Positions 991-56,946 of a stretch of DNA of 64,000 bases are shown here, in pieces (the first letter of the stretch is position 1; each line of letters begins with the position of its first letter). Location: NCBI GenBank assembly GCA_963772915.1, contig CAVYZI010000006.1, forward strand, positions 370,283 to 434,282, written 5' to 3'. A program made the position numbers and the translations under genes. Under the pieces are notes generated by a model that was given only the letters and a program-made list of their open reading frames with translations, did no database searches and had not been told where the DNA came from. Source of the stretch: an uncultured Verrucomicrobiae bacterium (GTDB taxonomy: Bacteria > Verrucomicrobiota > Verrucomicrobiia > Chthoniobacterales > UBA10450).

Positions 991-1099
991 CCGTAACGCA
1001 GGCGTCTCGCCTGCTTGGTCGTGCGGGCTTCCAGCCCGCAGCCTGGAAACGGCAGGCGAGACGCCTGCCGGACGGACAGCCGCGACGGCTGTCTTACGG
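991..1099. repeat. Nested hairpin cluster between the convergent GNAT and HNH genes.
   Basis: GCAGGCGTCTCGCCTGC (998-1014) is the exact reverse complement of GCAGGCGAGACGCCTGC (1052-1068). Each can also fold on itself through a 7-bp stem. There are inner hairpins GCGGGCTTCCAGCCCGC (1023-1039) and ACAGCCGCGACGGCTGT (1077-1093), and an outer pair CCGTAA/TTACGG. Confidence 0.8.
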
Positions 1100-3792: not shown

Positions 3793-4629
3793 ATGCGCGC
3801 GATTTGGAAAGGCAGTATCAGCTTCGGACTCGTTAACATCCCGATCGCTCTCTATCCGGCGACGCGACGGGAGGATCTCAAGTTCCGTCTCCTCCGGGGG
3901 AGCGACCTGAGCCCGGTGAACTACAAACGGGTGGCGGAGAAGGACGGCAAGGAAGTGCCGTGGGAGCAGATCGTCAAAGGCTACGAGTACGAAAAGGGCA
4001 AATTCGTCGTCCTGAACGAGAAGGATTTTCAGCGGGTCGATCTCGAGGCGACCCAGACGGTCGATATCCAGGACTTCGTCGACGTGGAAGAGATCGACCC
4101 GATGTATTTCTATAAGCCGTATTACCTCGAGCCGCAGAAAGGTGGCGACAAGGCCTACGTTCTCCTCCGCGAAACGCTCGAGAAAACGAACAAAGTCGGG
4201 ATCGCGAAGGTGATCATCAAGACGCGCCAATACCTCGCCGGAGTAAAGCCGCTCAAGCACGCCCTCGTCCTCGAGTTAATGCATTTCGCAGAGGAGCTTG
4301 CCGATGCGGAAAAACTGAACGTGCCGAAGAGATCATCCGAACCGGGGAAGCGTGAGTTGGATATGGCCAAGGCGCTGGTCGAGAACATGAGCGCGGAGTG
4401 GAACCCGACCAAGTACAAAGACGATTACCGTGATGCGCTCCTCGAGGTGATCGAGGAAAAAGTAGAATCCGGCGGCGAAGAAATCGAAGAGAAGCCGAAA
4501 GCAAAGAAACCATCGTCGAAGGTGATCGACCTCGTCGCCGTCCTGCAGGAAAGCCTGGCCAAATCGCAGGGGAACGGGAAGAAGCGCGCGAGCAAGAAGT
4601 CGAAAACGAGCAGGCGCAAAGCGGCCTGA
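3793..4629 (+). CDS. ku: Non-homologous end joining protein Ku.
   Basis: The N-terminus MRAIWKGSISFGLVNIPIALYPA, the motif YYLEPQKGGDKAYVLL and a lysine-rich C-terminal tail all match bacterial Ku. Confidence 0.9.
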   Translation: MRAIWKGSISFGLVNIPIALYPATRREDLKFRLLRGSDLSPVNYKRVAEKDGKEVPWEQIVKGYEYEKGKFVVLNEKDFQRVDLEATQTVDIQDFVDVEEIDPMYFYKPYYLEPQKGGDKAYVLLRETLEKTNKVGIAKVIIKTRQYLAGVKPLKHALVLELMHFAEELADAEKLNVPKRSSEPGKRELDMAKALVENMSAEWNPTKYKDDYRDALLEVIEEKVESGGEEIEEKPKAKKPSSKVIDLVAVLQESLAKSQGNGKKRASKKSKTSRRKAA

Positions 4630-8809: not shown

Positions 8810-9729
8810 ATGAACAATAAATGTTCCCCTTGGGGATCCCTCGTGGGCTGTGCTTTGCTCGCCGCCCTTTCCTTCACCGTCACCACCGCCCGTGCCGCGA
8901 CCGCCTGTGTCTGGCGCGTGACCAACGCTCCGGCGCCCTTCTATCTCGTCGGGACCATTCACGCACTCAGCGGGAAGGATTATCCGCTGCCCAAAGCCTA
9001 CGACCAGGCCCTGCACGATTCGCAGCAGTTTTTCTTTGAGATCGATCCGGACCGGCGGAGCGGGGATAAATTTTCGAAGCTGTTCGCCGCCGCCGCCGCC
9101 TACCCAAAAGGGGACGATATTCGTCATCATATTCATCCTCAGACTTGGAATTTCCTTGCGAAGAGATTCCGGGCATCCAACCTCCTCGGCAATGGCTGGT
9201 GGTTTGGTGAGCAATATATCCCGGGTCTGCAAAATATCCGGGCCTGGGCGATCGCGTATTACCTCTGGGGTATTAACGGCTACACCGATATCTTCGGGTA
9301 AGTATGGCGTCGATTACCACATCTCTTGGGAGGCGCAGCGAAAGCACGAGGCCTGTGGCGCCTTGGAAACCAGCGAGCAACATGTCGACGTCCTCGCGGG
9401 GCATGGCCGACATCGACGCCGAGCTGGTCCTGCTCGATGCGCTCGTCCGCGGCGATAAGCGCAAAGACGATTTCAACGCCATGCGCGCCGGCTGGAAACA
9501 TGGCGATCTCGGGCCGATGCTGGCGGACGAGACTCGCCAGCGCAAACTCAATCCGGGCGCGGAAATGCGCCTGCTGGACTATCGCAATCTGCGTTGGATC
9601 CCGAAAATCGAAGCTCTGATCAAAAGCGGAATTCCAACCTCGATTGTCGTCGGCACTGGACACTTCTGCGGGACGAACAGCGTCATCGAGCTCCTGCAGA
9701 AAAAGGGTTACAAGATCGAGCAACTCTAG
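8810..9729 (+). pseudogene. TraB/GumN family protein, with 2 frame breaks near 9290 and 9390.
   Basis: The N-terminal part reads CVWRVTNAPAPFYLVGTIHALSGKDYPLP. The middle GVDYHISWEAQRKH is in the 9036 frame. The C-terminal IPTSIVVGTGHFCGTNSVIELLQKKGYKIEQL is in the 9304 frame. Confidence 0.7.
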
Positions 9730-9897
9730 TCGCGTTCGTCGCTCGCGAAGCCGAGCCGGGAGACGGCCGCTGAGATCTTCTCAGGGTGAATTCTGAACGT
9801 TGAACTGCGGTTCGGCGTCTCAGAGGGGGAACTTTGCCTGCAGCGGGTGGCATTTGCCATTCCGGCGCGCCGCACCTATTGCAGAACCTCATTGCTT

Positions 9898-11990
9898 ATG
9901 ATCAAAACCGCTCTTTGCACCACGCTCAGCCTGCTCTGCGCCGCCTCGCTGCGCGCCCAATCCGAGCCGGCTCAATCGCCCGCTGCCGCCGCAGAGGGAC
10001 AGTCGGCGTCCGAGAAAAATCCGCCGCCGCTCGACCCCAAAAACATGGACACGTCGGTCAAGCCCGGGGACGACTTTTACCGCTACGCCAACGGCAATTG
10101 GATCAAGAACAATCCCGTCCCGCCCGAGTATTCGCGCTGGGGCAGTTTCAACGAGCTGATCGAGAAAAATAACGACGCGCTCCACCAGATCGCGGAGAAA
10201 GCCGCCAAAATCGAGAAGGGCGCCGAGCCCGCGGTGCAAAAGGTGGGCGACTTCTACGCCAGCGGGATGAACGAGGAGGCGATCGACGAGGCGAAAATCC
10301 AGCCCTTGCAGGACGAGCTGAAGCAGATCGACGCGATGAAAGATCGCGACTGACCTGACGAAGGAAATCGGCCATCTCCACAGCATGGGTGTGAGAGCGT
10401 TTTTCGGTTTCACTTCCGGCCAGGATGACAAGAACAGCACGATGGTGATCGCGCAGGCTTTCCAGGGCGGGCTTGGGTTGCCCGATCGCGATTACTACAC
10501 GAAGCAGGACGACGCTTCGAAAAAGCTGCGGAAGCAATACGTCGATCACGTGACGAAGATGTTCACGTCTGCTGGGCGATTCTCCCGAGGATGCGGCGAA
10601 AAACGCCAAGACCGTGATGGAGGTGGAGACCTCGCTGGCCAAGCCGGCCCGCACCCGCGTCGAGCTGCGCGATCCGCAGAAGAATTACAACAAGATGTCG
10701 GTCGCCGACCTGAAGAAGCTGATGCCCGATTTCAAGTGGGACGATTATTTCCAGCAGCTCAACCTTGCGGCCCCGGGCGCGATCAACGTCGGCCAGCCCG
10801 ACTTTTTCAAAGCTGCCGACCAGGTCTTCAAGAACCGTCTCGCTCGACGACTGGAAGACTTATCTGCGCTGGCACCTCGTGCACGGCGCGGCGCCGATGC
10901 TTTCGAAGGATTTCGTCGACGAGAATTTCGCCTTCTATCGGCAAGACCCTGACCGGCGCCGAGAAAATCAAGCCGCGCTGGAAACGCGTCGTCACCACGA
11001 TCGACGACGAGATCGGCGAAGCGCTCGGCAAACTCTATGTCGCCGATTATTTCCCGCCCGAAGCCAAGAAGCGCGCCCTCGAGATGGTGCAACAACCTCA
11101 AGGAAGCGCTCGCCGACCGGATCAAGTCGAACGATTGGATGGATGAGCCGACGAAGCAGGCGGCGCTGAAAAAACTCGCCGCTTTCACGGTCAAGATCGG
11201 TTACCCCGACAAGTGGCGCGATTACTCCACCCTCAAGATCGATCGCGGGCCCTACGTCTCGAACGTCATGCGGAGCGACGAATTCGAAGTCGCGCGCGAG
11301 CTGAAGAAGATCGGCAAACCGGTCGATCGCAGCGAGTGGGGAATGAGCTCCGCCGACCGTCAACGCCTACTACAACCCGAACATGAACGAGATTGTTTTC
11401 CCGGCCGGCATTTTGCAGCCGCCTTTCTTTAATCCCAACGCCGACGATGCGGTGAACTACGGCGGCATGGGCGCGGTCATCGGCCACGAGATGACGCATG
11501 GCTTCGACGATCAGGGCCGGCAATACGACGCCCAGGGCAACCTGCGCGACTGGTGGACGCCGGCTTCCGCCGAAAGCCTTCAGCGAACGCGCCAAGGCCG
11601 TCGTCGACCAATACTCGGCCTACGAGCCGCTCCCCGGTCTGCACATCAACGGTAAGCTCACCCAGGGCGAAAACATCGCCGACATCGGCGGCCTCAAGAT
11701 CGCCTATGCCGCTTTCAAAAAAGCGCAGGCCGCGCATCACGACGACCCGAACAAGAAGATCGACGGCTTTACTCCCGATCAGCGGTTCTTCCTCGCCTGG
11801 GCGCAAATCTGGCGGGCCAATCAGCGCGATCAGGAGACCGAAGCTGCGTCTCAACACCGATCCGCATTCGCCGGGCCGTTTCCGCACCATCGGCCCCGTC
11901 TCCAACATGCCGGAATTCCAAAAAGCCTTCGACCTGCCCGACAACAGCCCGATGGTCCGTCCCGCAAAGGAACGCGCCAACATCTGGTAG
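9898..11990 (+). pseudogene. M13 family metallopeptidase, PepO/neprilysin-like, with 8 frame changes.
   Basis: The recognisable segments are [86 protein letters not shown], the zinc motif [29 protein letters not shown] and the C-terminal PAKERANIW. They are spread across ORFs 9847, 10385, 10614, 10765, 11037, 11383, 11498 and 11553. Confidence 0.85.
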
Positions 11991-12049
11991 GGGCGGCCGG
12001 GCCGCCTCCGGTTATTGGTTAATGGTGTAGAGGCGGCCGTGTCGGCCGC
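11987..12049. repeat. Two tandem REP-like units, each a GTAG followed by a hairpin.
   Basis: The units are GTAGGGGCGGCCGGGCCGCC (11987-) and TGTAGAGGCGGCCGTGTCGGCCGC (12026-12049). The TAG of the first GTAG is the M13 stop codon. Confidence 0.75.
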
Positions 12050-20818: not shown

Positions 20819-22005
20819 ATGAAACGACTGCTCTGCCTGGCAACCCTGCTTGCCATCTCCACCGGATTCGCCGCGGACTTGCCGGTTGTCTTTCCGGTGT
20901 CTCCATCGGCCGACGGCCGCTACCTTCAGGATGCAACCGGGGTTCCGTTCCCGATCCTCGGCCGGACGGCATGGTTCATCACCTCACTGAAGCGGTCAGA
21001 ATACGAGACCTTCCTCAACGATACTGCGGCCAGGGGCTATACCGCGATCGAGTTCCACGTCGTCAACCATGATTCCCGCGGCAACCACCCGCCCTTCGCC
21101 GGGAACCGGGCGCTGCCTTTTTCTGAAGAACCTGGACGGCTCCAGATACACAGGCGGCCTGAGCGGAACCGCGGACTTCACCACGCCTAACGAGGCCTAC
21201 TGGGCCTATGTCGATTCCCTTCTCGATTACGCGGAGTCGAAAGGTCTGCTCGCCTTCATCTTCCCCGCCTATGCCGGATACCTCGGCGGCAGCCAGGGCT
21301 GGATGATCGAGCTGCTGGCCAACGGCCCGGAGAAGGTGGAGACCTACGGCGCATGGATCGCCACCCGTTATGCTACGCGGAAAAACATTGTCTGGATGAT
21401 GGGCGGCGATATCGGCACCGACGATAACTCTTTCACGCCCGAGCAGACGGCGGTGGAGCGAGTGTTGCTCACCGGACTGCAAAGCGTGCCCGGCCAGCAG
21501 TCCATTTATTTCTCGGCCGAGTGGAATACCGATTCCGTCGCGACCGACCAGGTGGACTTCGGGACCGCGATGACGAATCCTAACCGCGGGCTGGCAGAAC
21601 CACCTGAACACGCTTGGCGCGCAGGACATGGCGCGGCTTAACGCCTTCATCAGATCGGTTCCGTGGCAAACGCTCGTGCCCTCCGGGCTCGGCGGCATCG
21701 GCACGATCGTGACCGACGGCGGCGGCACGACCGATTTCGATTTCATAACCGCCGCAGTAACGGCGAACGGACGATTACTCGTCGCCTACGTGCCGCCAGG
21801 CGGGCACCCGGGATCGATCAGGACCTTTACGATCGACATGAGTTTTCTTGCCGGCCCGGCACGAGCCCGTTGGTTCAATCCGGCGACGGCGCAATACAGC
21901 GTGATCGCCAAAAATCTGCCCAACGCTGGCGGGCACGTCTTCACGACCCCGGGAAACAACGGTTCGGGCTACAGCGACTGGGTCCTGGTGATCGACTCGC
22001 AGTGA
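20819..22005 (+). pseudogene. DUF4038 / GH140-like glycoside hydrolase with a C-terminal collagenase-type binding domain. There are 2 frame breaks, at T5 run 21118-21122 and near 21600.
   Basis: The signal peptide is MKRLLCLATLLAIS. Recognisable segments are GRYLQDATGVPFPILGRTAWF...GYTAIEFHV, then FTTPNEAYWAYVDSLLDYAESKGL...IVWMMGGD, then WFNPATAQYSV...GYSDWVLVI. Confidence 0.7.
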
Positions 22006-22048: not shown

Positions 22049-22070
22049 GCCTAACGCCTAACGCCTAACG
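22049..22070. repeat. Three tandem overlapping copies of GCCTAACG (a 7-nt period).
   Basis: The sequence is GCCTAACGCCTAACGCCTAACG. The middle CTA (22058-22060) is the TAG stop of the minus-strand SprT-like gene. Confidence 0.95.
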
Positions 22071-22702
22071 AGCTGGAGCTTGAAGCGGCGGTCGTATCGT
22101 CCGCCATTATAGGTGCGACAGCAGGCGAGGCAGGCGGAAGTGCGACGCAGCGCGCGGGTGCGCGGAAAATCGCGGTGGCAATGCGGACAGGTGTAAAGAT
22201 AACGGCGTTGCTGGCGGCGAATGGGGAAGGGGAGATTATGGCAGCGCGCTTCCCCGGCGATCCCAAGGTCGGCGCAGGCGCGACGCCATTCCGCTCCGTG
22301 GGGTGCGATCCGGCGGCGGCCAGCGCGGGTTTGGGCGAGGAGGTGGGCCAGCTCATGGCGCAGGGTGCGATCGATTTCCGCCTCGCCGTGCGCGGCGAGG
22401 CGGCAATTGAGCAGAACGCGCGCGTGGCGGAACTCCGCCCGCCCGGCGGCGGAACGGAGTCGTGATGACCATTCGACGCGCGCGCGCGCGGCAAGGTCCG
22501 GCGCGCCTTGCGCGAGGAGGAGATTACGGGCCAGGGCTTCGAGCCCGGGATCGCGGCCCGGCGATTTTTTCGGCAGAGGAGTTGTGAGCGCGAGCTCGAG
22601 TTGGATCTGGACCTGACGCGGCGCGTCCCTCCGGAGGGACGCGCTTTCGCGCGTCCGGTTTCTCGGCCGACCGTGAGGCGGGTCCACGCTAGACCAGGGC
22701 AT
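22058..22702 (-). CDS. SprT-like zinc metalloprotease domain protein. The ORF is probably over-extended at its N-terminus.
   Basis: The HExxH motif reads TLRHELAHLLAQ. The C-terminal zinc ribbon reads YLYTCPHCHRDF...SACLACC. The first about 30 codons cover a hairpin repeat. Confidence 0.7.
   Translation of the reverse strand: MPWSSVDPPHGRPRNRTRESASLRRDAPRQVQIQLELALTTPLPKKSPGRDPGLEALARNLLLAQGAPDLAARARVEWSSRLRSAAGRAEFRHARVLLNCRLAAHGEAEIDRTLRHELAHLLAQTRAGRRRIAPHGAEWRRACADLGIAGEARCHNLPFPIRRQQRRYLYTCPHCHRDFPRTRALRRTSACLACCRTYNGGRYDRRFKLQLVRR
22614..22658. repeat. Family A hairpin repeat variant.
   Basis: GCGCGTCCCTCCGGAGGGACGCGC is a perfect 24-nt palindrome. It is followed by GGACGCGC-TTTC-GCGCGTCC. 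Confidence 0.8.
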
Positions 22703-23969
22703 GGGGCGGCCGATCGGCCATCCGCGTCCTGGGCTGCCGCTGCACGATGCGCTGGATGGCTGCGATGGTTTGCTCGATTTCGGCGGCGGTCGTTTCTCTG
22801 CCTAACGAAAAGCGAATGGCAGAAGCGGCGCGCTCCGCCGGCAATCCGAGCGCGAGCAGGACATGGGAGGCGACGACCGAGCCGACCATGCAGGCCGAGC
22901 CGCTCGAGGCGCAGACGCCTTCGAGATCGAGCGCCATCAGCATCGTCTCCGAATCGAAACCGGGGAAGCTGACGTTGAGCGTGTTGGCCAGGCGCGGCGC
23001 GCCGGCCGCGTTCAGTTGCGCCGCGGGGAAAACGCGGGCTACGCCGCGCCAGAGTTCGTCGCGCAATTTTGCCTCCCGTGCCTGTTCGTTAGGCAAATCG
23101 CGCAAAACTTCCTCCGCGGCCGCTGCCATCCCGACGATGGCGGGGACATTTTCGGTCCCGGGCCGGCGCTCGCCCTCGTGCGCACCGCCGAATTGGATGT
23201 GATCGATCGGCAGGCCCGAGCGCAGATAGAGAAAGCCGGCGCCTTTCGGGCCGTAGAATTTGTGCGCGCCGAAGCTGGCGGCGTCGCAGAGAAATGATCC
23301 TGGACGCGCGGAAGCGCGTCCCTCCGGTAGGGCGAGACTCTGTCGAGCCGGGGGCAAAACGTCGCCGCCGAAGAAACCTTCCCGCCCTGGCTCGACAGAG
23401 TCTCGCCCTACCAAAGAGTCCAGTTTGCCGAAGGATTGCACCATGTCGGTGTGCAAGAGGACGCCGTGCGTTTGGCAACGTGCTGCAATTTCGGCCATCG
23501 GCTGGATGACGCCCGTCTCGTTGTTTGCAGTCATGATCGAGACCAGGATCGTGTCGGGGCGGATGGCCCGCTCGAGCTCGTCCGGATCGATCAAACCCTC
23601 CGAAGAAAGCGGGAGCCAGGTGACCTCGAAGTCTTCCCGCTGCTCCAGATGTTCGAGCGTGTGGAGCACAGCATGATGCTCCGCCCGGTTGCTGATCAAA
23701 TGCTTTCCATCAGGCGCGCCGCGTCGCGCCAGGCCGAGGAGGGCGAGGTTGTTCGATTCCGTCCCGCCGCTGGTGAAAATGATCTCGTGCGGTTTCGCGC
23801 CTAACAATGCCGCGAGCCGGTCGCGCGCGTCGTCGATCGCGGCCCGCGTTTCGCGTCCGGCGCGATGAACGCTGGAAGGATTGCCAAAATGCCGCTCGAA
23901 ATAAGGCTGCATCGCGCGCCAGGCCGCCTCGCTCAGCGGGGTGGTGGCGTTGTAGTCGAGGTAGATCAT
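22689..23969 (-). CDS. Cysteine desulfurase of the NifS/IscS family, carrying a 38-codon in-frame repeat insertion.
   Basis: The conserved segments are MIYLDYNATTP, IIFTSGGTESNN, ETGVIQP, LLHTDMVQSFGKL, SFGAHKFYGPKG (the PLP lysine), RPGTENV and SGSACM.... Confidence 0.88.
   Translation of the reverse strand: MIYLDYNATTPLSEAAWRAMQPYFERHFGNPSSVHRAGRETRAAIDDARDRLAALLGAKPHEIIFTSGGTESNNLALLGLARRGAPDGKHLISNRAEHHAVLHTLEHLEQREDFEVTWLPLSSEGLIDPDELERAIRPDTILVSIMTANNETGVIQPMAEIAARCQTHGVLLHTDMVQSFGKLDSLVGRDSVEPGREGFFGGDVLPPARQSLALPEGRASARPGSFLCDAASFGAHKFYGPKGAGFLYLRSGLPIDHIQFGGAHEGERRPGTENVPAIVGMAAAAEEVLRDLPNEQAREAKLRDELWRGVARVFPAAQLNAAGAPRLANTLNVSFPGFDSETMLMALDLEGVCASSGSACMVGSVVASHVLLALGLPAERAASAIRFSLGRETTAAEIEQTIAAIQRIVQRQPRTRMADRPPHALV
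23299..23412. repeat. Composite repeat, a family A half-unit fused to family B MITE-like element copy B1, inside the cysteine desulfurase ORF.
   Basis: CCTGGACGCGCGGAAGCGCGTCCCTCCG is fused to GGTAGGGCGAGACTCTGTCGAGCC...GGCTCGACAGAGTCTCGCCCTACC. The total is 114 nt, which equals 38 codons. Confidence 0.9.
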
Positions 23970-24892
23970 CGCCCGACCGATGCATCCGAGCCGGTCAAGG
24001 GACGGTTGCGCTTGAGCATGACCTGGAACTGGTTCGCATCGTAGGCGACGAGCGAATCGGGCGGCACACTCTGAGTGAGAAAAACATTGCCGCCGATCGT
24101 GCTCCGCGCGCCGATCACCGTCTCGCCCCCGAGGACGGTCGAGTTGGGATAAATCGTGACGTTATCCTCGACGTTGGGATGACGTTTCCCGCCCTTCTTG
24201 ATGTGGCCTTCTTCGTCCTTCTGGAAGCTGCGCGCGCCTAACGTCACCCCATGATACAGCTTCACGTGATTGCCGATCACGCAGGTCTCGCCGATCACGA
24301 CGCCGGTGCCGTGATCGATAAAAAAATGGCTCCCGATCTGCGCCCCGGGATGAATGTCGATCCCGGTGCGGCCGTGGGCCCATTCCGTCATCATGCGCGG
24401 AATGAGCGGGAGATTTGCCTCGTAAAGCAGATGCGCGAGGCGCTGGATGGCGAGGGCTTCGAGGGAGGGATAGGCGAGAATGATTTCCTCAAAACTGGTC
24501 GAGGCCGGGTCGCCTTCGTAGGCGGCATCGATATCGGCCCAGAGCATCTCGCGCACGCTGGCGAGCTGGGCGAAAAAGCTTTTCAGAATCCGATCGGCAT
24601 CCGGGGCGACGGAACCATTCCCGCCGCGGCGCGCGAGGCTCTTGCACATCTCGGGGTGGAGTCGGGTATAGAGCGAACGAATCCGGCTCCGGGTCAGATC
24701 CGGCAGATCGCCCGGATGCACGATGGCGGCGCCATGAAAACCGGGGAAGAGCAGGCTGAGTAATTCGACGCAGGCGGCATCGATCGCGGGGCGCGACGGG
24801 AGGCTGGCGGCGACGTCGAGATAATTAATCCCGCCGCCGGCGGTGTAAGTGCGCAGGAGTGCCTCGGCCGGGTCGTTGGAAGTTTCAGCCAT
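23966..24892 (-). CDS. cysE: Serine O-acetyltransferase.
   Basis: The sequence GIDIHPGAQIGSHFFIDHGTGVVIGETCVIGNHVKLYHGVTLG is the hexapeptide-repeat core. The stop codon overlaps the cysteine desulfurase start (ATGA). Confidence 0.9.
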   Translation of the reverse strand: MAETSNDPAEALLRTYTAGGGINYLDVAASLPSRPAIDAACVELLSLLFPGFHGAAIVHPGDLPDLTRSRIRSLYTRLHPEMCKSLARRGGNGSVAPDADRILKSFFAQLASVREMLWADIDAAYEGDPASTSFEEIILAYPSLEALAIQRLAHLLYEANLPLIPRMMTEWAHGRTGIDIHPGAQIGSHFFIDHGTGVVIGETCVIGNHVKLYHGVTLGARSFQKDEEGHIKKGGKRHPNVEDNVTIYPNSTVLGGETVIGARSTIGGNVFLTQSVPPDSLVAYDANQFQVMLKRNRPLTGSDASVGR

Positions 24893-24948
24893 CGCCTGAA
24901 ATATCGGTGAGGCGAGCGGTAATGAAAATCAAAAAGGTTTCCGCGCGG

Positions 24949-24974
24949 CTGTAGCCGGGGTCGGTGACCCCGGC
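24949..24974. repeat. REP-like GTAG hairpin.
   Basis: The sequence is CTGTAGCCGGGGTC-GGTG-ACCCCGGC. Confidence 0.7.
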
Positions 24975-25701
24975 TGGTCTGGAGGCGCGGCCGGCACATT
25001 CCACCTGGCCCCGGGGTCAACGCCCCCGGCGACAGCCGAAGCCGGAGAGTCGCAACGCAAAATGCGGGCGCCGCCACGATTGGGGATTGACACAAAAACG
25101 TCGGCTCTGCAGACTCGCGGCCGGTTTCGATTACCTCGCCAATGCGTTCCGCCCGCCCATTAATGCGTCACCCACCAATGGCGCAGTTGCTGCAGGACCC
25201 TGCTCTTGCTCCCGATCGGCATTTTGCGGGCCCATTTTCCGATTAACCCGGAGGCGAAACGAGCGCCCGGAGGCGAAAGGCAGATCGACCAGATCGATCC
25301 GGAGCTGGTCGCCAGTTTCGAGCTTAGTAGCAACCAAGCGATGGTGCGGTTTGATTGGTTCGACCCATCCAAGTCTCAGGCTGCGCCCGTGCTTCGCACG
25401 CCTATGTCGCAGCGTCCCCCCGGACTCCATTCACTCGTGCCCTCGGTCAGCCTCCGGGCTTCCCCGTCTATGTCGCGGCTTGGCAATCCGCTCCATTGGG
25501 GCGTGGAATTCTCCCTTCTATTCCCCCAAGGCCCTCAACGCGAGCAGGAAATCACGACCCTCCGTGCACGCGAAAATGCACTCGCCCGTGTACGAGCTTG
25601 GGTCTATTACTAGTTAGGTCTCGTGCGCGACGCCATTATTCGTTTCGTGGAGTTGCTGAACCAGCTCTCGGAGGTTCTTAGGCCATTCGTTACCAGTCAC
25701 C

Positions 25702-26083: not shown

Positions 26084-27406
26084 TCAGGCGGCCTTGGCGA
26101 GGGCGAGTTCGAGTTTGGAAGCCAGAGGTGAGCCTCTGCGTTTGAGGGTCTCGAGGTAATTGGTTTCGTCATAGGCGACGCGGTCGCGCCAGCAGACGAA
26201 CATGATGCGCTGCCACTTGAAGGCGAGGGCGCGGACGGCGGTGGGATGCTTTTTGCCTTTGGCGATCTGTTCCTGGAGGAAAAGTTTGGCCCAGGAGCAA
26301 TGGAGAACCGATTGGTTGGCGTACTCGAAGAAGCTCTGATGAAGGAAGTGTGGCCGGGCCCAGCGACGATGGACCCAGTGCTGGTTTTTGCCGCTGCGCT
26401 CGGTGACCGGGGCGATGCCGCTGTATTGCTGGATGGCGGCAGCGCTCTGGTAACGGGCGCGTTCGCTGCCGAAGGCGCAGCAGAGCCGGGGGGCGAGGGT
26501 GGGCCCGGCGCCCGGGAAGCTCTCCCAGATGCGGGCATCGGGATGGGCAAGGAAGAGTTGCTCGATCCTGGAGTCATACTCTTGGAGGGCGGCGGCGAGT
26601 GGGAGTAACTGGTGGGCGAGCATGGCGACCTGAACTTTGGCGGGTTCGACCAGGGCGGGGTCGGAGGTGAGCGGGAGCATCGCGCCGATCGCTGCGAGGC
26701 GTTTGTTGATCACATCCAAACGCCGGCAACGGTGGGCGTAGTAGAACTTGCGGATGGTTTGCTTTCTGGCTCTTTGCAGTTCCTGGAGGGAAGGCCACTG
26801 GAGGAGGAAGTGACAAGCCAGCGGGGCAAAGAGATCCTGGCCGGCTAACTCGAGGGCCTGGGGATAGTAGCTCTTGAGGGCGTCGCGCAGCATGTTGGTG
26901 AGCAGGGTGCGCAGATCGACCAGGCCGCGGCGCGCTTGGAGGAGCCGGGCGAGCTGGCGGGTCTGGGGATCGTCGAGGGTCAGGGGAGTGAGTTTGGCGC
27001 GATGGTGGAGGAGCAACTCGAGGCAGACCTCTGCATCGGAGGGATCGCTCTTGGCCCGGCTGGTCTGAAAGGCCTGGCGGTAGCGGGCGGCGGTGGCCGG
27101 GTTGACCGGGTAAAGCACGAGGAAGGGGTAAGCCAGCAGAGAAGAAATCAGAGGCCCTTTGGCTTGCTCCAGACAAAGGGCGATCTTGCCTTCCGGGAAG
27201 CGCTCCGCCAGGGCGGCCGCCCATTGGGCGATGGCTTCGGGAGTGTGCTCCAGAGTGGAGGCCTCGCGCTGGCCGGTGGTGCAATCGTAGAGACACAAAG
27301 CGTGCTCTTGGCTGCCCCAATCCAGCCCGATGAGAGCGGCCCAGTCGCCCTCCCTCGGGGTTTTCTTCATCGTCTCGTGATCGTGGTTGGTGGATTTGAT
27401 TTTCAT
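26084..27406 (-). CDS. IS110 family transposase (DEDD recombinase), element 1.
   Basis: The N-terminus reads LIGLDWGSQEHALCLYD. The C-terminal Transposase_20-like part reads YQSAAAIQQYSGIAPVTERSGK...RWARPHFLHQSFFEYA. The frame is intact. Confidence 0.85.
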   Translation of the reverse strand: MKIKSTNHDHETMKKTPREGDWAALIGLDWGSQEHALCLYDCTTGQREASTLEHTPEAIAQWAAALAERFPEGKIALCLEQAKGPLISSLLAYPFLVLYPVNPATAARYRQAFQTSRAKSDPSDAEVCLELLLHHRAKLTPLTLDDPQTRQLARLLQARRGLVDLRTLLTNMLRDALKSYYPQALELAGQDLFAPLACHFLLQWPSLQELQRARKQTIRKFYYAHRCRRLDVINKRLAAIGAMLPLTSDPALVEPAKVQVAMLAHQLLPLAAALQEYDSRIEQLFLAHPDARIWESFPGAGPTLAPRLCCAFGSERARYQSAAAIQQYSGIAPVTERSGKNQHWVHRRWARPHFLHQSFFEYANQSVLHCSWAKLFLQEQIAKGKKHPTAVRALAFKWQRIMFVCWRDRVAYDETNYLETLKRRGSPLASKLELALAKAA

Positions 27407-27442
27407 GGTTTGATGTGGTGTTTGCGGGCGCACAACACGCTG

Positions 27443-27596
27443 GCTTTCATTCGGCGAAGGCATTATTGTCTGGACCTCGAACGGGTCGTCATTTGAGGAT
27501 TCGTTACGAATGAAAGCACGCCCGGACTCCACTCGAAGCTATGGTTACAATCGTCGAGCGATTGGCGATGGAGATTCGTAGTGGGCCGGTGCGTGC
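27443..27596 (-). ncRNA. Candidate IS110 bridge/seek guide RNA region: two stem-closed domains just 5' of transposase 1.
   Basis: GCTTTCATTCG (27443-27453) pairs perfectly with CGAATGAAAGC (27507-27517). GCACGCCCGG (27515-27524) pairs with CCGG(T)GCGTGC (27586-27596). There is no credible ORF here. Confidence 0.35.
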
Positions 27597-37156: not shown

Positions 37157-37551
37157 AAATTTTTGGTCAGCACCAATTCGGTTCCGCGGCTGCGCAGGAC
37201 GTAATCGACCTGATCGAAAGCGTTCCGGATGAGATGGAGACCGAGCCCGCCCGGCTTGATCAGGTCGGGCGGACGACTGTTCATCGCCGCCGCCTTTTTC
37301 CCGTAATCCCGCAGACGCAGGCAGACGCAGTCGCTTTTGCTCTCCAGCGAGAGCGAGATGAGCTGGTCGTCCCGCAAATGGTAGGCGTGCCGGATAATGT
37401 TGGTGCAGGCTTCGTCCACCCCCAGCACCATGAGGGTGCGCTGGCGTTCGGAGAAGGGGAAGGCTTCGAGGAAGCGGCGCACACAATTGCGCATCAGGGC
37501 GAGGTTGCCGGTATGACTGGAGAATTCGATTTTCTTCTTCGTCTTCTTCAT
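37150..37551 (-). CDS. Anti-sigma regulatory factor / HATPase_c_2 serine kinase, RsbW/SpoIIAB-like.
   Basis: The sequence reads VDEACTNIIRHAY...LRLRDYGKK...GGLGLHLIRNAFDQVDY. Confidence 0.7.
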   Translation of the reverse strand: MKKTKKKIEFSSHTGNLALMRNCVRRFLEAFPFSERQRTLMVLGVDEACTNIIRHAYHLRDDQLISLSLESKSDCVCLRLRDYGKKAAAMNSRPPDLIKPGGLGLHLIRNAFDQVDYVLRSRGTELVLTKNLE

Positions 37552-37686
37552 CACCGGGAGCGCGCCTAACAATCAGCCCGCTCTTTCCCTCTGTCATGCT
37601 GGCGAGTTTCGGCCCGGCTCGCAACGACTTTCTCGCGGAGAGAAAGGACTTTGCCTAACGACTGCCGTTTCTCGGCAGGCACTTTT

Positions 37687-37768
37687 GGTGGGGCGAGACT
37701 CTTCGAGCCGGGGCAGCCGGGCCGGCACGATTAACCCTCTCCCAGGCTCGACAGAGTCTCGCCCCACC
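37687..37768. repeat. Family B MITE-like element, copy B2.
   Basis: The sequence is GGTGGGGCGAGACTCTTCGAGCCGGGG...CAGGCTCGACAGAGTCTCGCCCCACC. Confidence 0.9.
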
Positions 37769-42567: not shown

Positions 42568-42656
42568 GGTGGGGCGAGACTCTGTCGAGCCTGAGAGAGA
42601 GGGCGGCTTGGAATAGATGGATGCGAAACCCCGGCTCGACGGAGTCTCGCCCCACC
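42568..42656. repeat. Family B MITE-like element, copy B3.
   Basis: The sequence is GGTGGGGCGAGACTCTGTCGAGCC...GGCTCGACGGAGTCTCGCCCCACC. Confidence 0.9.
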
Positions 42657-44414: not shown

Positions 44415-44513
44415 GCTGTAGACGCTTCGCTGGGCGAAGCGCGAGTGTGGCAGCGTTTGCGAGAGAACATGGCCCACGCAGACCCGCGCTTCGCACAGCG
44501 AAGCGTCTACAGC
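44415..44513. repeat. Inverted pair of GTAG-type REP units (BIME/REPIN-like), family C.
   Basis: GCTGTAGACGCTTCGCTGGGCGAAGCGCG is followed by about 40 nt and then CGCGCTTCGCACAGCGAAGCGTCTACAGC. Confidence 0.9.
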
Positions 44514-53520: not shown

Positions 53521-53649
53521 CTGTCATCCCGAAGCTGGCGCAGCGCGCTGAGGGACCTCACCCCATGGGCTGGGACATCTCGCTCCGGTTCGTCAACCGA
53601 CGAGCCCGGGTGAGGTCCCTCGCCGCGCTCCGCCGGTTCGGGAGGACAG
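53521..53649. repeat. Long imperfect hairpin (about 129 nt) between convergent genes.
   Basis: CTGTCATCCCGAA pairs with TTCGGGAGGACAG. GCGCGCTGAGGGACCTCACCC pairs with GGGTGAGGTCCCTCGCCGCGC. Confidence 0.8.
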
Positions 53650-56858: not shown

Positions 56859-56909
56859 CCTGGACGCGCGGAAGCGCGTCCCTCCGGAGGGACATGCTTC
56901 CGCATGTCC
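56859..56909. repeat. Family A double-hairpin repeat, full copy A2, lying between the ABC ATPase and permease genes.
   Basis: The sequence is CCTGGACGCGC-GGAA-GCGCGTCCCTCCGGAGGGACATGC-TTCC-GCATGTCC. Confidence 0.9.
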
Positions 56910-56946
56910 AGGATCATCAGGGTTGGCAAGTCGTTAGGATGAACTT

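Follow-up and report, generated by a model that had tools for sequence, protein, structure and literature searches.

In-frame insertion of palindromic DNA into protein-coding genes is established for the Rickettsia palindromic elements (RPEs) and for several MITEs (miniature transposable elements with inverted repeats) (PMC10969869). In addition, Di Nocera et al. (2013) found intragenic repetitive extragenic palindromes (REPs) of the GTAG/CGTC kind in many species, most of all in Opitutus terrae, a verrucomicrobium, and described GTAG-to-GTGG variants, dimers with variable spacers of 20-100 bp and REPs nested in other palindromes (PMC3733652). Here we analyse a palindromic insert in a cysteine desulfurase gene of another verrucomicrobium, an uncultured member of the order Chthoniobacterales; the gene lies in a 64-kb stretch of contig CAVYZI010000006.1, which as a whole is referred to below as the window. 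The insert is made of sequences from two repeat families, denoted A and B. We favour, with a probability of roughly 0.78, the explanation that selfish dispersed palindromic repeat DNA occupies one permissive loop of a housekeeping-type pyridoxal 5'-phosphate (PLP) enzyme, with the ribosome reading through it. The list of intragenic REPs in PMC3733652, including its Additional file 3, contains no desulfurase, no aminotransferase and no peptide matching A or B, and in the literature searched we found no paper linking cysteine desulfurase, Chthoniobacterales or Udaeobacter to such elements. The original prediction for this locus had held an insertion of this kind to be unreported for the lineage and the enzyme, which stands at the level of order and enzyme but not at that of the phylum, given the intragenic REPs of O. 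terrae.

A composite insert next to the PLP-lysine

The host gene (22689..23969, reverse strand) encodes a NifS/IscS-type (class I) cysteine desulfurase of 426 residues. Desulfurases from the PDB align with the product in two blocks, residues 2-182 and 228-409 of the query against 11-193 and 203-384 of the chain, so that about 36 residues are extra at one point. There the gene carries a composite in-frame insert of 114 nt (23299..23412, reverse strand), whose 38 codons specify residues 187-224 (VGRDSVEPGREGFFGGDVLPPARQSLALPEGRASARPG; VGRDSVEP...ASARPG) without any stop codon and end 12 residues before the PLP-binding lysine, K237. An insert of this size, frame and position had been predicted and is borne out, except that the nucleotide boundaries as originally given are one base off the codon boundaries. 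Its removal leaves 426 - 38 = 388 residues and a 10-residue spacing from GKL to SFGAHK, as in uninserted orthologues (GKLPTDLTGIDAASFGAHK), in agreement with the expectation that excision restores the usual spacing. The tryptic peptides DSVEPGR, EGFFGGDVLPPAR and QSLALPEGR are encoded within the insert region.

Repeat copies and the mapping of arms and hairpins confirm the proposed composition of half an A element and a complete B element. The A part (23299..23325) is a single unit consisting of the hairpin GGACGCGC-GGAA-GCGCGTCC (23302-23321, with an 8-bp stem formed by 23302-23309 and 23314-23321) and the tag CTCC (23322-25). A full A element is a double hairpin, GGAC-N4-GGAA-N4'-GTCC, CTCCGGAG, GGAC-N4-TTCC-N4'-GTCC, in which the two units meet at their tags; the inner four base pairs vary among copies, yet are complementary in every one of them. 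The B part (23326..23412) has two 28-nt arms (23326-23353 and 23385-23412), which are 96% complementary and stand 31 nt apart, around a spacer at 23354-23384. More generally, B is a pair of 24-28-nt arms flanking a spacer of 31-41 nt, the spacers being unrelated between copies. In the gene, the whole B element follows the A unit exactly at the CTCC|GGAG boundary, in the place of the second A unit.

Both families are dispersed in the window, and copies of both also lie outside genes, as is the case for RPEs and intragenic REPs. The A unit GGACGCGCGGAAGCGCGTCCCTCCGG recurs exactly at 23302, 35934 and 56862 and with one mismatch at 22631 (reverse strand), and the B arm GGTAGGGCGAGACTCTGTCGAGCC is found at 23326 (forward strand) and 23389 (reverse strand) and with one or two mismatches at 37745, 42568 and 42633; neither had a match in 100 trials with shuffled sequence. 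Two full A copies are intergenic, one with two hairpins at 35934..35982 and one at 56862..56910, just past the stop codon of an ABC-transporter ATPase gene, while B copies with unrelated spacers lie outside the desulfurase gene at 37685..37768 and 42568..42656. The claim that the families are intergenic elsewhere in the window is accordingly right for the A copies at 35934 and 56862, but not for another full A copy at 22613-22656, which is in frame within the translated N-terminus of a SprT-like open reading frame (ORF) (22058..22702, reverse strand).

RNA of the insert region folds at -93 kcal/mol (z = -7.6). A single A unit, taken as single-stranded DNA, also forms a strong hairpin (-11.4 kcal/mol, z = -4.2), whereas a single B arm does not fold on itself (-2.9 kcal/mol, z = 0.17). 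A thus behaves like a REP unit, but carries GGAG beside its stem, which is not among the listed REP tag variants (GTAG/CGTC). The outer ends of B read G-GTAG-GG in the window copy and at locus L164, and G-GTGG-GG in other copies (L numbers denote genome loci of relatives, P numbers orthologous proteins). An interpretation of B as a dimer of self-folding GTAG REPs was dropped because the single arm does not fold.

The product of the host gene matches Pfam family Aminotran_5 (E = 8e-73) and PDB structures of IscS, Nfs1 and NifS (E = 1e-88 to 1e-65), and it has the hallmarks of class I desulfurases: the fold-type I PLP fold, the PLP-lysine, the SSGSAC cysteine loop and conserved His, Asp and Arg. 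The codons of K237 (23259..23261, reverse strand; motif SFGAHK) and of the catalytic cysteine C360 (22890..22892, reverse strand; motif SSGSAC) were read from the sequence. H98, D175, K237, C360 and R386 correspond to invariant columns of a 145-sequence alignment, and all five are present in the window protein. The NCBIfam profiles for NifS and IscS gave 416 and 330 bits, below their equivalog cut-offs of 530.75 and 643, in part because the insert splits the profile match; as neither cut-off is reached, the desulfurase is not assigned to a subfamily.

Outside the loop, the ratio of nonsynonymous to synonymous substitution rates (dN/dS) between the window gene and ten relatives is 0.07-0.11. 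Judged by its codons, the gene is not decaying but under strong purifying selection, with the catalytic residues kept. An AlphaFold2 model based on the 145-sequence alignment has a mean predicted local distance difference test score (pLDDT) of 90.6 and a predicted template-modelling score of 0.89, and its only stretch of at least three residues under pLDDT 50 is 195-220. (A first run on 80 close relatives, with a pLDDT of 60.7, was disregarded and replaced by this run on a diverse alignment.) DSSP assigns no secondary structure to residues 187-229 of the model, nor to the wider span 181-229; the flanking strands are 171-175 and 230-234, so that the insert follows the beta-strand that closes with D175 and precedes the one that runs up to K237. 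Foldseek superimposes the model on human Nfs1, E. coli IscS, M. tuberculosis IscS and a T. maritima NifS-like protein with template-modelling (TM) scores of 0.88-0.95 (target-normalised) and a root-mean-square deviation of ~2 Å. In the model, the core keeps the ordinary IscS fold and the 38 residues are an unstructured excursion outside the confident part. On this evidence the host protein appears to remain functional, and the insert lies where the fold can accommodate it.

One loop and three repeat families

Orthologues were collected as the 120 best homologues, all from metagenome-assembled genomes of Chthoniobacterales or 'Spartobacteria', and as 80 genome loci of the same origin. Their modal length is 387-388 residues, and the loop reads QSFGK-LPTDLTGID-AASFGAHK. 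Of 246 distinct orthologues, 171 have the bare 9-residue loop, and 54 (~22%) have inserts of 10 residues or more. A alone occupies the loop in 18 and B in five, in four of them together with an A unit and in one, P0005, on its own. In 27, the loop holds an inverted repeat of a third family, C, which is unrelated to the other two (GTCATTCCGAGCGAAGTCGAGGAATC...; peptide VIPSEVEESR...RDPSTSLRSAQDD). Short leftovers of +1 to +15 residues occur in about 25 orthologues, and some of these look like collapsed palindromes; for example, GKLDLRPGFLPCD would be an A-bearing loop minus the segment between repeated GCGCG. Orthologues with up to 89% identity to the window protein outside the loop lack the insert, so the insert is lineage-specific, as the alignment had been expected to show.

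For a wider view, we turned to sequences from all taxa, clustered at 50% identity, and used the 150 best cluster representatives. All 150 break their match to the window protein at query positions ~183-228, and none of these diverse NifS/IscS-family sequences has a segment homologous to the 38 residues. The outcome that had been named beforehand as refuting a mobile insertion, a homologous segment in unrelated taxa, was thus not observed. In 108 of them, which could be parsed by pattern, the spacing from Asp to Lys is the standard 23-26 residues. Three loci from other samples, L081, L082 and L083, encode 426-residue orthologues that share the A-unit-plus-B architecture and are equal in length, distinguished by substitutions only, and the substitutions across the four independent assemblies fit vertical divergence. 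A metagenome scan yielded no match above 75% identity, so that the comparison of A+B inserts rests on four genes.

C is present in two clades, with identities to the query of 63-67% in the first and ~76% in the second, and in the loop it was seen at L029, L032, L033, L038, L074, L106, L109, L120-L123, L130, L131, L136, L150 and L158. It is abundant in Udaeobacter-like contigs, with nested extra hairpins in L029 and L033 and an internal deletion in L038. The loci contain about 59 further matches to C arms, a large share of which fall 600-800 nt beyond the stop codon of the desulfurase gene, near the end of the SprT-like gene. The loops of L103, L104 and L112 hold a variant of +11 residues, SASRTDSSCGE before TDIDLSSVD, that fits none of A, B and C.

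All 25 insert-bearing loci from the DNA-level search, as well as L081-83 and L164-166, have inserts that are a multiple of three and free of stops. The window insert is open in four of six reading frames, which makes the lack of stops unremarkable; what is remarkable is the consistent multiple of three. When the 120 closest orthologues are compared, the part of the protein ahead of QSFGK, 177 residues, has a constant length in 118 of 119, and the stretch after HK varies in length only in the C-terminal tail. The loop is therefore the sole internal indel site of the gene. A second in-frame insertion affects the SprT-like neighbour, whose product, with its A copy, has 214 residues versus 186 in L002-L006, L081, L083 and L164; no alternative SprT start codon lies between the A element and the conserved QLEL start region. 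Related N-terminal inserts of SprT occur in L001 and L007, and A-like cores at the same junction in L015, L018 and L089. Neither the recurrence of three families in the desulfurase loop nor the in-frame A copy in the SprT-like gene was part of the original prediction.

The content of the loop does not follow the relatedness of the genes. With the loop masked, the window protein is closest (89%) to uninserted proteins, and the other A+B proteins are ~85% identical to it; the clade is nearly star-like, however, so this contrast is weak if taken alone. Three further comparisons are robust. The B-bearing P0005/L164 and the uninserted L004 are 95% identical with a synonymous divergence (dS) of 0.35. 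L083, with the A unit and B, and L005, with a full A, are separated by a dS of 0.165 and have different cassettes, right-hand A hairpins and tails. The A-bearing P0014/L165 and the C-bearing P0028/L166 have proteins that are 95% identical, and their DNA (L165:289-1509 vs L166:3001-4275) has an identity of 98.5% downstream of the loop, rising to 100% more than 90 nt away from it, versus 92.3% upstream. This step in identity marks a recombination breakpoint at or near the loop, and recombination has uncoupled cassettes from the gene around them. Overall, genes whose nearby sequence is 95-100% identical can differ in their cassettes. On a neighbour-joining tree, the Fitch counts of state changes are 15 for A, 5 for B and 13 for C; we do not accept them as numbers of insertion events, since the star-like close clade and recombination at the loop lead to overstatement. 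The minimum is one insertion event per family.

Within the insert, arms and spacer evolve differently. Among the four A+B orthologues, leaving aside the close pair L082/L083 (0.82-0.96 in every class), pairwise identity is 0.89-0.90 at codon positions 1+2 of the gene and 0.58-0.64 at third positions, as compared with 0.77-0.92 for the B arms, 0.69-0.88 for the A unit and 0.26-0.59 for the B spacer. The B spacer hence drifts at about the neutral rate, with its length kept. Conservation of the arms extends to all three codon positions, though the peptides that they encode, VGRDSVEP and ARQSLAL, differ. Across seven B copies, pairing holds in 96.4% of arm cells, and three pairs have changed on both sides; 5 of 500 column shuffles reached the observed values. 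Similarly, the A hairpins of L002, L005 and L006 have different inner 4 bp, and each stem is perfectly paired. Paired arms and stems next to a drifting spacer point to a constraint on nucleic-acid pairing or on likeness to other copies, and not on the peptide. A search of the insert against Rfam gave sub-threshold matches to miRNA hairpins only (28.7 bits vs a gathering score of 80), which we take as chance, and a scan for terminators and promoters returned nothing above background and no terminator-like tail.

Origin of the insert and competing explanations

The observations are best explained by an RPE-like in-frame insertion of a composite palindromic repeat, as had been proposed. An A unit, from a REP-like double-hairpin family, and then a complete B would have been inserted in a structurally permissive loop. 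The ribosome presumably reads through the insert, and the resulting 38 residues would be a disordered surface excursion that is tolerated and has no function of its own. Conservation of the arms might then result from forces acting at the level of the element, either pairing-dependent maintenance or homogenisation with other copies, and not from protein function. The recurrence of insertions in this loop would be mainly a selection filter, in that in-frame insertions elsewhere in the gene are likely lethal and removed, with sequence targeting possibly helping. Once the loop was occupied, cassettes may have been exchanged between strains by homologous recombination.

Several points weigh against this explanation. 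Translation of the insert is inferred only from the conserved frame, and its exposure at the surface from low pLDDT and lack of secondary structure in the model. The conserved arms could instead mean a selected function of RNA or DNA. The insertions are not clean: they take the place of native loop codons to the left and to the right, and the filled-versus-empty pairs L164/L004, L123/L148 and L032/L067 show no target-site duplication. No transposase of the REP-associated tyrosine transposase (RAYT; PF01797) type is encoded among the 66 ORFs of the window. Finally, a pure selection filter has no obvious explanation for the fact that all three families begin 2-5 nt after GGCAAA (Gly-Lys), and none for the occurrence of the same 7 nt, GGACCTG, both in the native loop ACGGACCTGAC and in a common A stem, GGACCTGC-TTCC-GCAGGTCC; this sharing is suggestive of targeting, but not more.

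These last two observations are what one would expect if the recurrence were due to targeted insertion and not to selection only, with the element or an enzyme recognising the DNA of the loop, or with a resident palindrome attracting the next one by nesting at the tag boundary. In the same direction, GGATGACATCGG at the right end of C is similar to native GATCGACACCGA, B is placed precisely at A's CTCC|GGAG boundary, A recurs at another site as well, the SprT start junction, with six loci, and nesting of REPs in other palindromes has precedent (PMC3733652). Nevertheless, by our own estimate chance would produce ~0.1-0.2 matches of 7 nt in a gene of 1.2 kb, the native loop sequence differs between lineages, and right-hand junctions vary between events. 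Recombination, moreover, can spread few events widely, which makes the number of independent insertions uncertain. We regard targeting as possible but less probable than a filter by selection. A stronger version is doubtful, namely that the loop between Gly-Lys and His-Lys is a true landing pad for unrelated palindromes, through similarity of native DNA to element ends or through a resident palindrome, and that the hairpins are kept because they act on the cysE-desulfurase-sprT transcript. If it were true, the order would offer a series of filled, empty and swapped sites for the study of REP-like insertion and of its absorption into an enzyme core.

It is somewhat less likely still that the insert has been co-opted, either as mRNA structure in the cysE-desulfurase-sprT operon (a barrier to processing or decay, or a translational pause) or as a protein loop that binds a partner. 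The very stable hairpin, the arms conserved like codon positions 1+2 with compensatory changes, and the constant length of A+B in four lineages whose third codon positions have diverged by ~40% could all be accommodated by such a function, and roles of REPs in mRNA stability have been proposed (PMC3733652). However, most orthologues lack the insert and others have unrelated elements at the same place, and cassettes have been swapped between near-identical genes. The peptide is predicted to be disordered and the spacer is unconstrained, while the RNA has no terminator-like tail and belongs to no Rfam family. Homogenisation among dispersed copies is equally expected to conserve the arms.

We consider it very improbable that the insert is absent from the mature protein owing to ribosome bypass, intein splicing or removal of RNA. 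In yeast mitochondria, ribosomes hop over GC-rich mobile hairpins, and gene 60 of T4 is a precedent from a bacterial virus; a strong hairpin is present here as well. Yet at least 25 insert-bearing loci keep a multiple of three and remain stop-free, which would not be needed if the segment were skipped. The signature of bypass, a stop after the take-off codon together with matched take-off and landing codons, is not seen, the insert having no stop codon. For an intein, 38 residues are too short, and the junctions do not have the required residues, since the insert starts with V and ends with G followed by S, with no terminal HN. Equally improbable, and largely refuted, is an inactivated gene or an assembly artefact: several other window genes are split by frameshifts and the insert lies very close to the catalytic lysine, but the low dN/dS, the intact catalytic residues and the confident model core speak against a pseudogene, and misassembly, which had been named as a possible source of error, is ruled out by the repetition of the A+B architecture in four independent assemblies with substitutions that fit vertical divergence.

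Neighbouring DNA and comparison with described systems

The desulfurase gene overlaps the genes on both sides. The serine O-acetyltransferase gene (cysE/EpsC-like; 23966..24892, reverse strand) overlaps its start by 4 nt and belongs to the same operon, and the order cysE-desulfurase is also found in L081, L082, L083 and L166. The SprT-like gene overlaps its stop codon by 14 nt. At least five more inverted-repeat families lie between genes of the window (991-1075, 24946-25038, 37055-37163, 44415-44513 and 53537-53634). They are 85-110 nt long, with arms of 24-35 nt that are 88-91% complementary and spacers of 29-45 nt; one of them is located just upstream of cysE and one is built of runs of the heptamer GAATGAC. 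Two IS110-family (DEDD) transposase genes and a DDE_Tnp_1_6 fragment (26084-27532, 28278-29447 and 29957-30487, all on the reverse strand) lie 2-6 kb from the operon and are the only transposase genes in the window. REPs have been reported as targets of insertion sequence (IS) elements (PMC1525189).

Several window genes are split or truncated (8810-9729, 9847-12022, 21069-22005 and 36246-37037), including TraB/GumN in two ORFs, Peptidase_M13 in at least three, an apiosidase-like gene in two overlapping ORFs and RuvB with only 263 residues, versus 334 in L081. They are either real pseudogenes or indel errors of long-read assembly. The nucleoside-diphosphate kinase product of relatives has 358 residues (L081:12925-14001, L083:4098-5174), where ~140-150 would be expected; a fusion, a start called in the wrong place or a further insert may account for the excess. 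The window also encodes a Ku homologue (3793-4629, forward strand), on which basis the organism probably has end-joining repair, a conceivable route for the capture of filler DNA at breaks.

The locus extends protein-coding palindromes beyond endosymbionts of the Rickettsia type to an abundant, uncultured, free-living soil lineage, the Chthoniobacterales including Udaeobacter, and adds a central sulfur-trafficking enzyme as a new target. It is a natural experiment on the choice of insertion sites, on the tolerance of a PLP fold to 14-45 extra residues by an active-site strand and on the spread of cassettes by recombination. In addition, inserts that split profile matches can mislead the annotation of metagenome-assembled genomes.

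Among described systems, intragenic MITEs (ERIC, BOX, QMITE1 of Coxiella and the MITEs of Anabaena; PMC10969869) are similar in being small non-autonomous inverted repeats that add peptide segments, and B and C share with MITEs the terminal inverted repeats. They differ from MITEs in the lack of target-site duplication and of a conserved interior, as the spacers of B are unrelated between copies; no parent IS with the same ends was seen, the ends of the IS110 and DDE genes of the window not having been checked. REPINs, the REP doublets forming hairpins described by Bertels and Rainey (2011; PMC3116915), likewise have inverted arms and a spacer that together fold into one long hairpin, with arms conserved above the spacer and pairing kept, as in inverted REP dimers generally and as seen for B. 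Unlike B, however, REPINs are described as extragenic and moved by RAYTs, none of which is found in the window, and the arms of B are not themselves palindromic.

The intragenic REPs of O. terrae (PMC3733652) come from the same phylum; there, singletons and dimers encode 7-30 residues (up to 82), GTAG is often mutated to GTGG, as in B, dimer spacers vary in the same manner and double insertions in one gene occur. On the other hand, A has GGAG and not GTAG/CGTC, the single B arm forms no hairpin, and recurrence in O. terrae concerns a class of genes (DNA repair genes), whereas here it concerns one loop across an order. RPEs, as summarised in the accounts we drew on (Ogata et al. 2000, 2002; PMC10969869, PMC3733652), are also dispersed palindromes found both between genes and in frame in conserved genes, where the translated or translatable insert occupies a place tolerated by the fold and insert-free orthologues exist. 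Their hosts are AT-rich obligate intracellular alphaproteobacteria, as opposed to a free-living soil verrucomicrobium of 61% GC, their sequence families are presumably unrelated to those described here, and the window insert differs in being a composite of an A unit and B; one loop shared by three unrelated families, with turnover of cassettes in Chthoniobacterales, likewise sets the present case apart from RPEs in their summarised form. In-frame palindromic insertion is thus already known, and what is new is a single-loop hot spot that is order-wide, used by three families and subject to exchange of cassettes.

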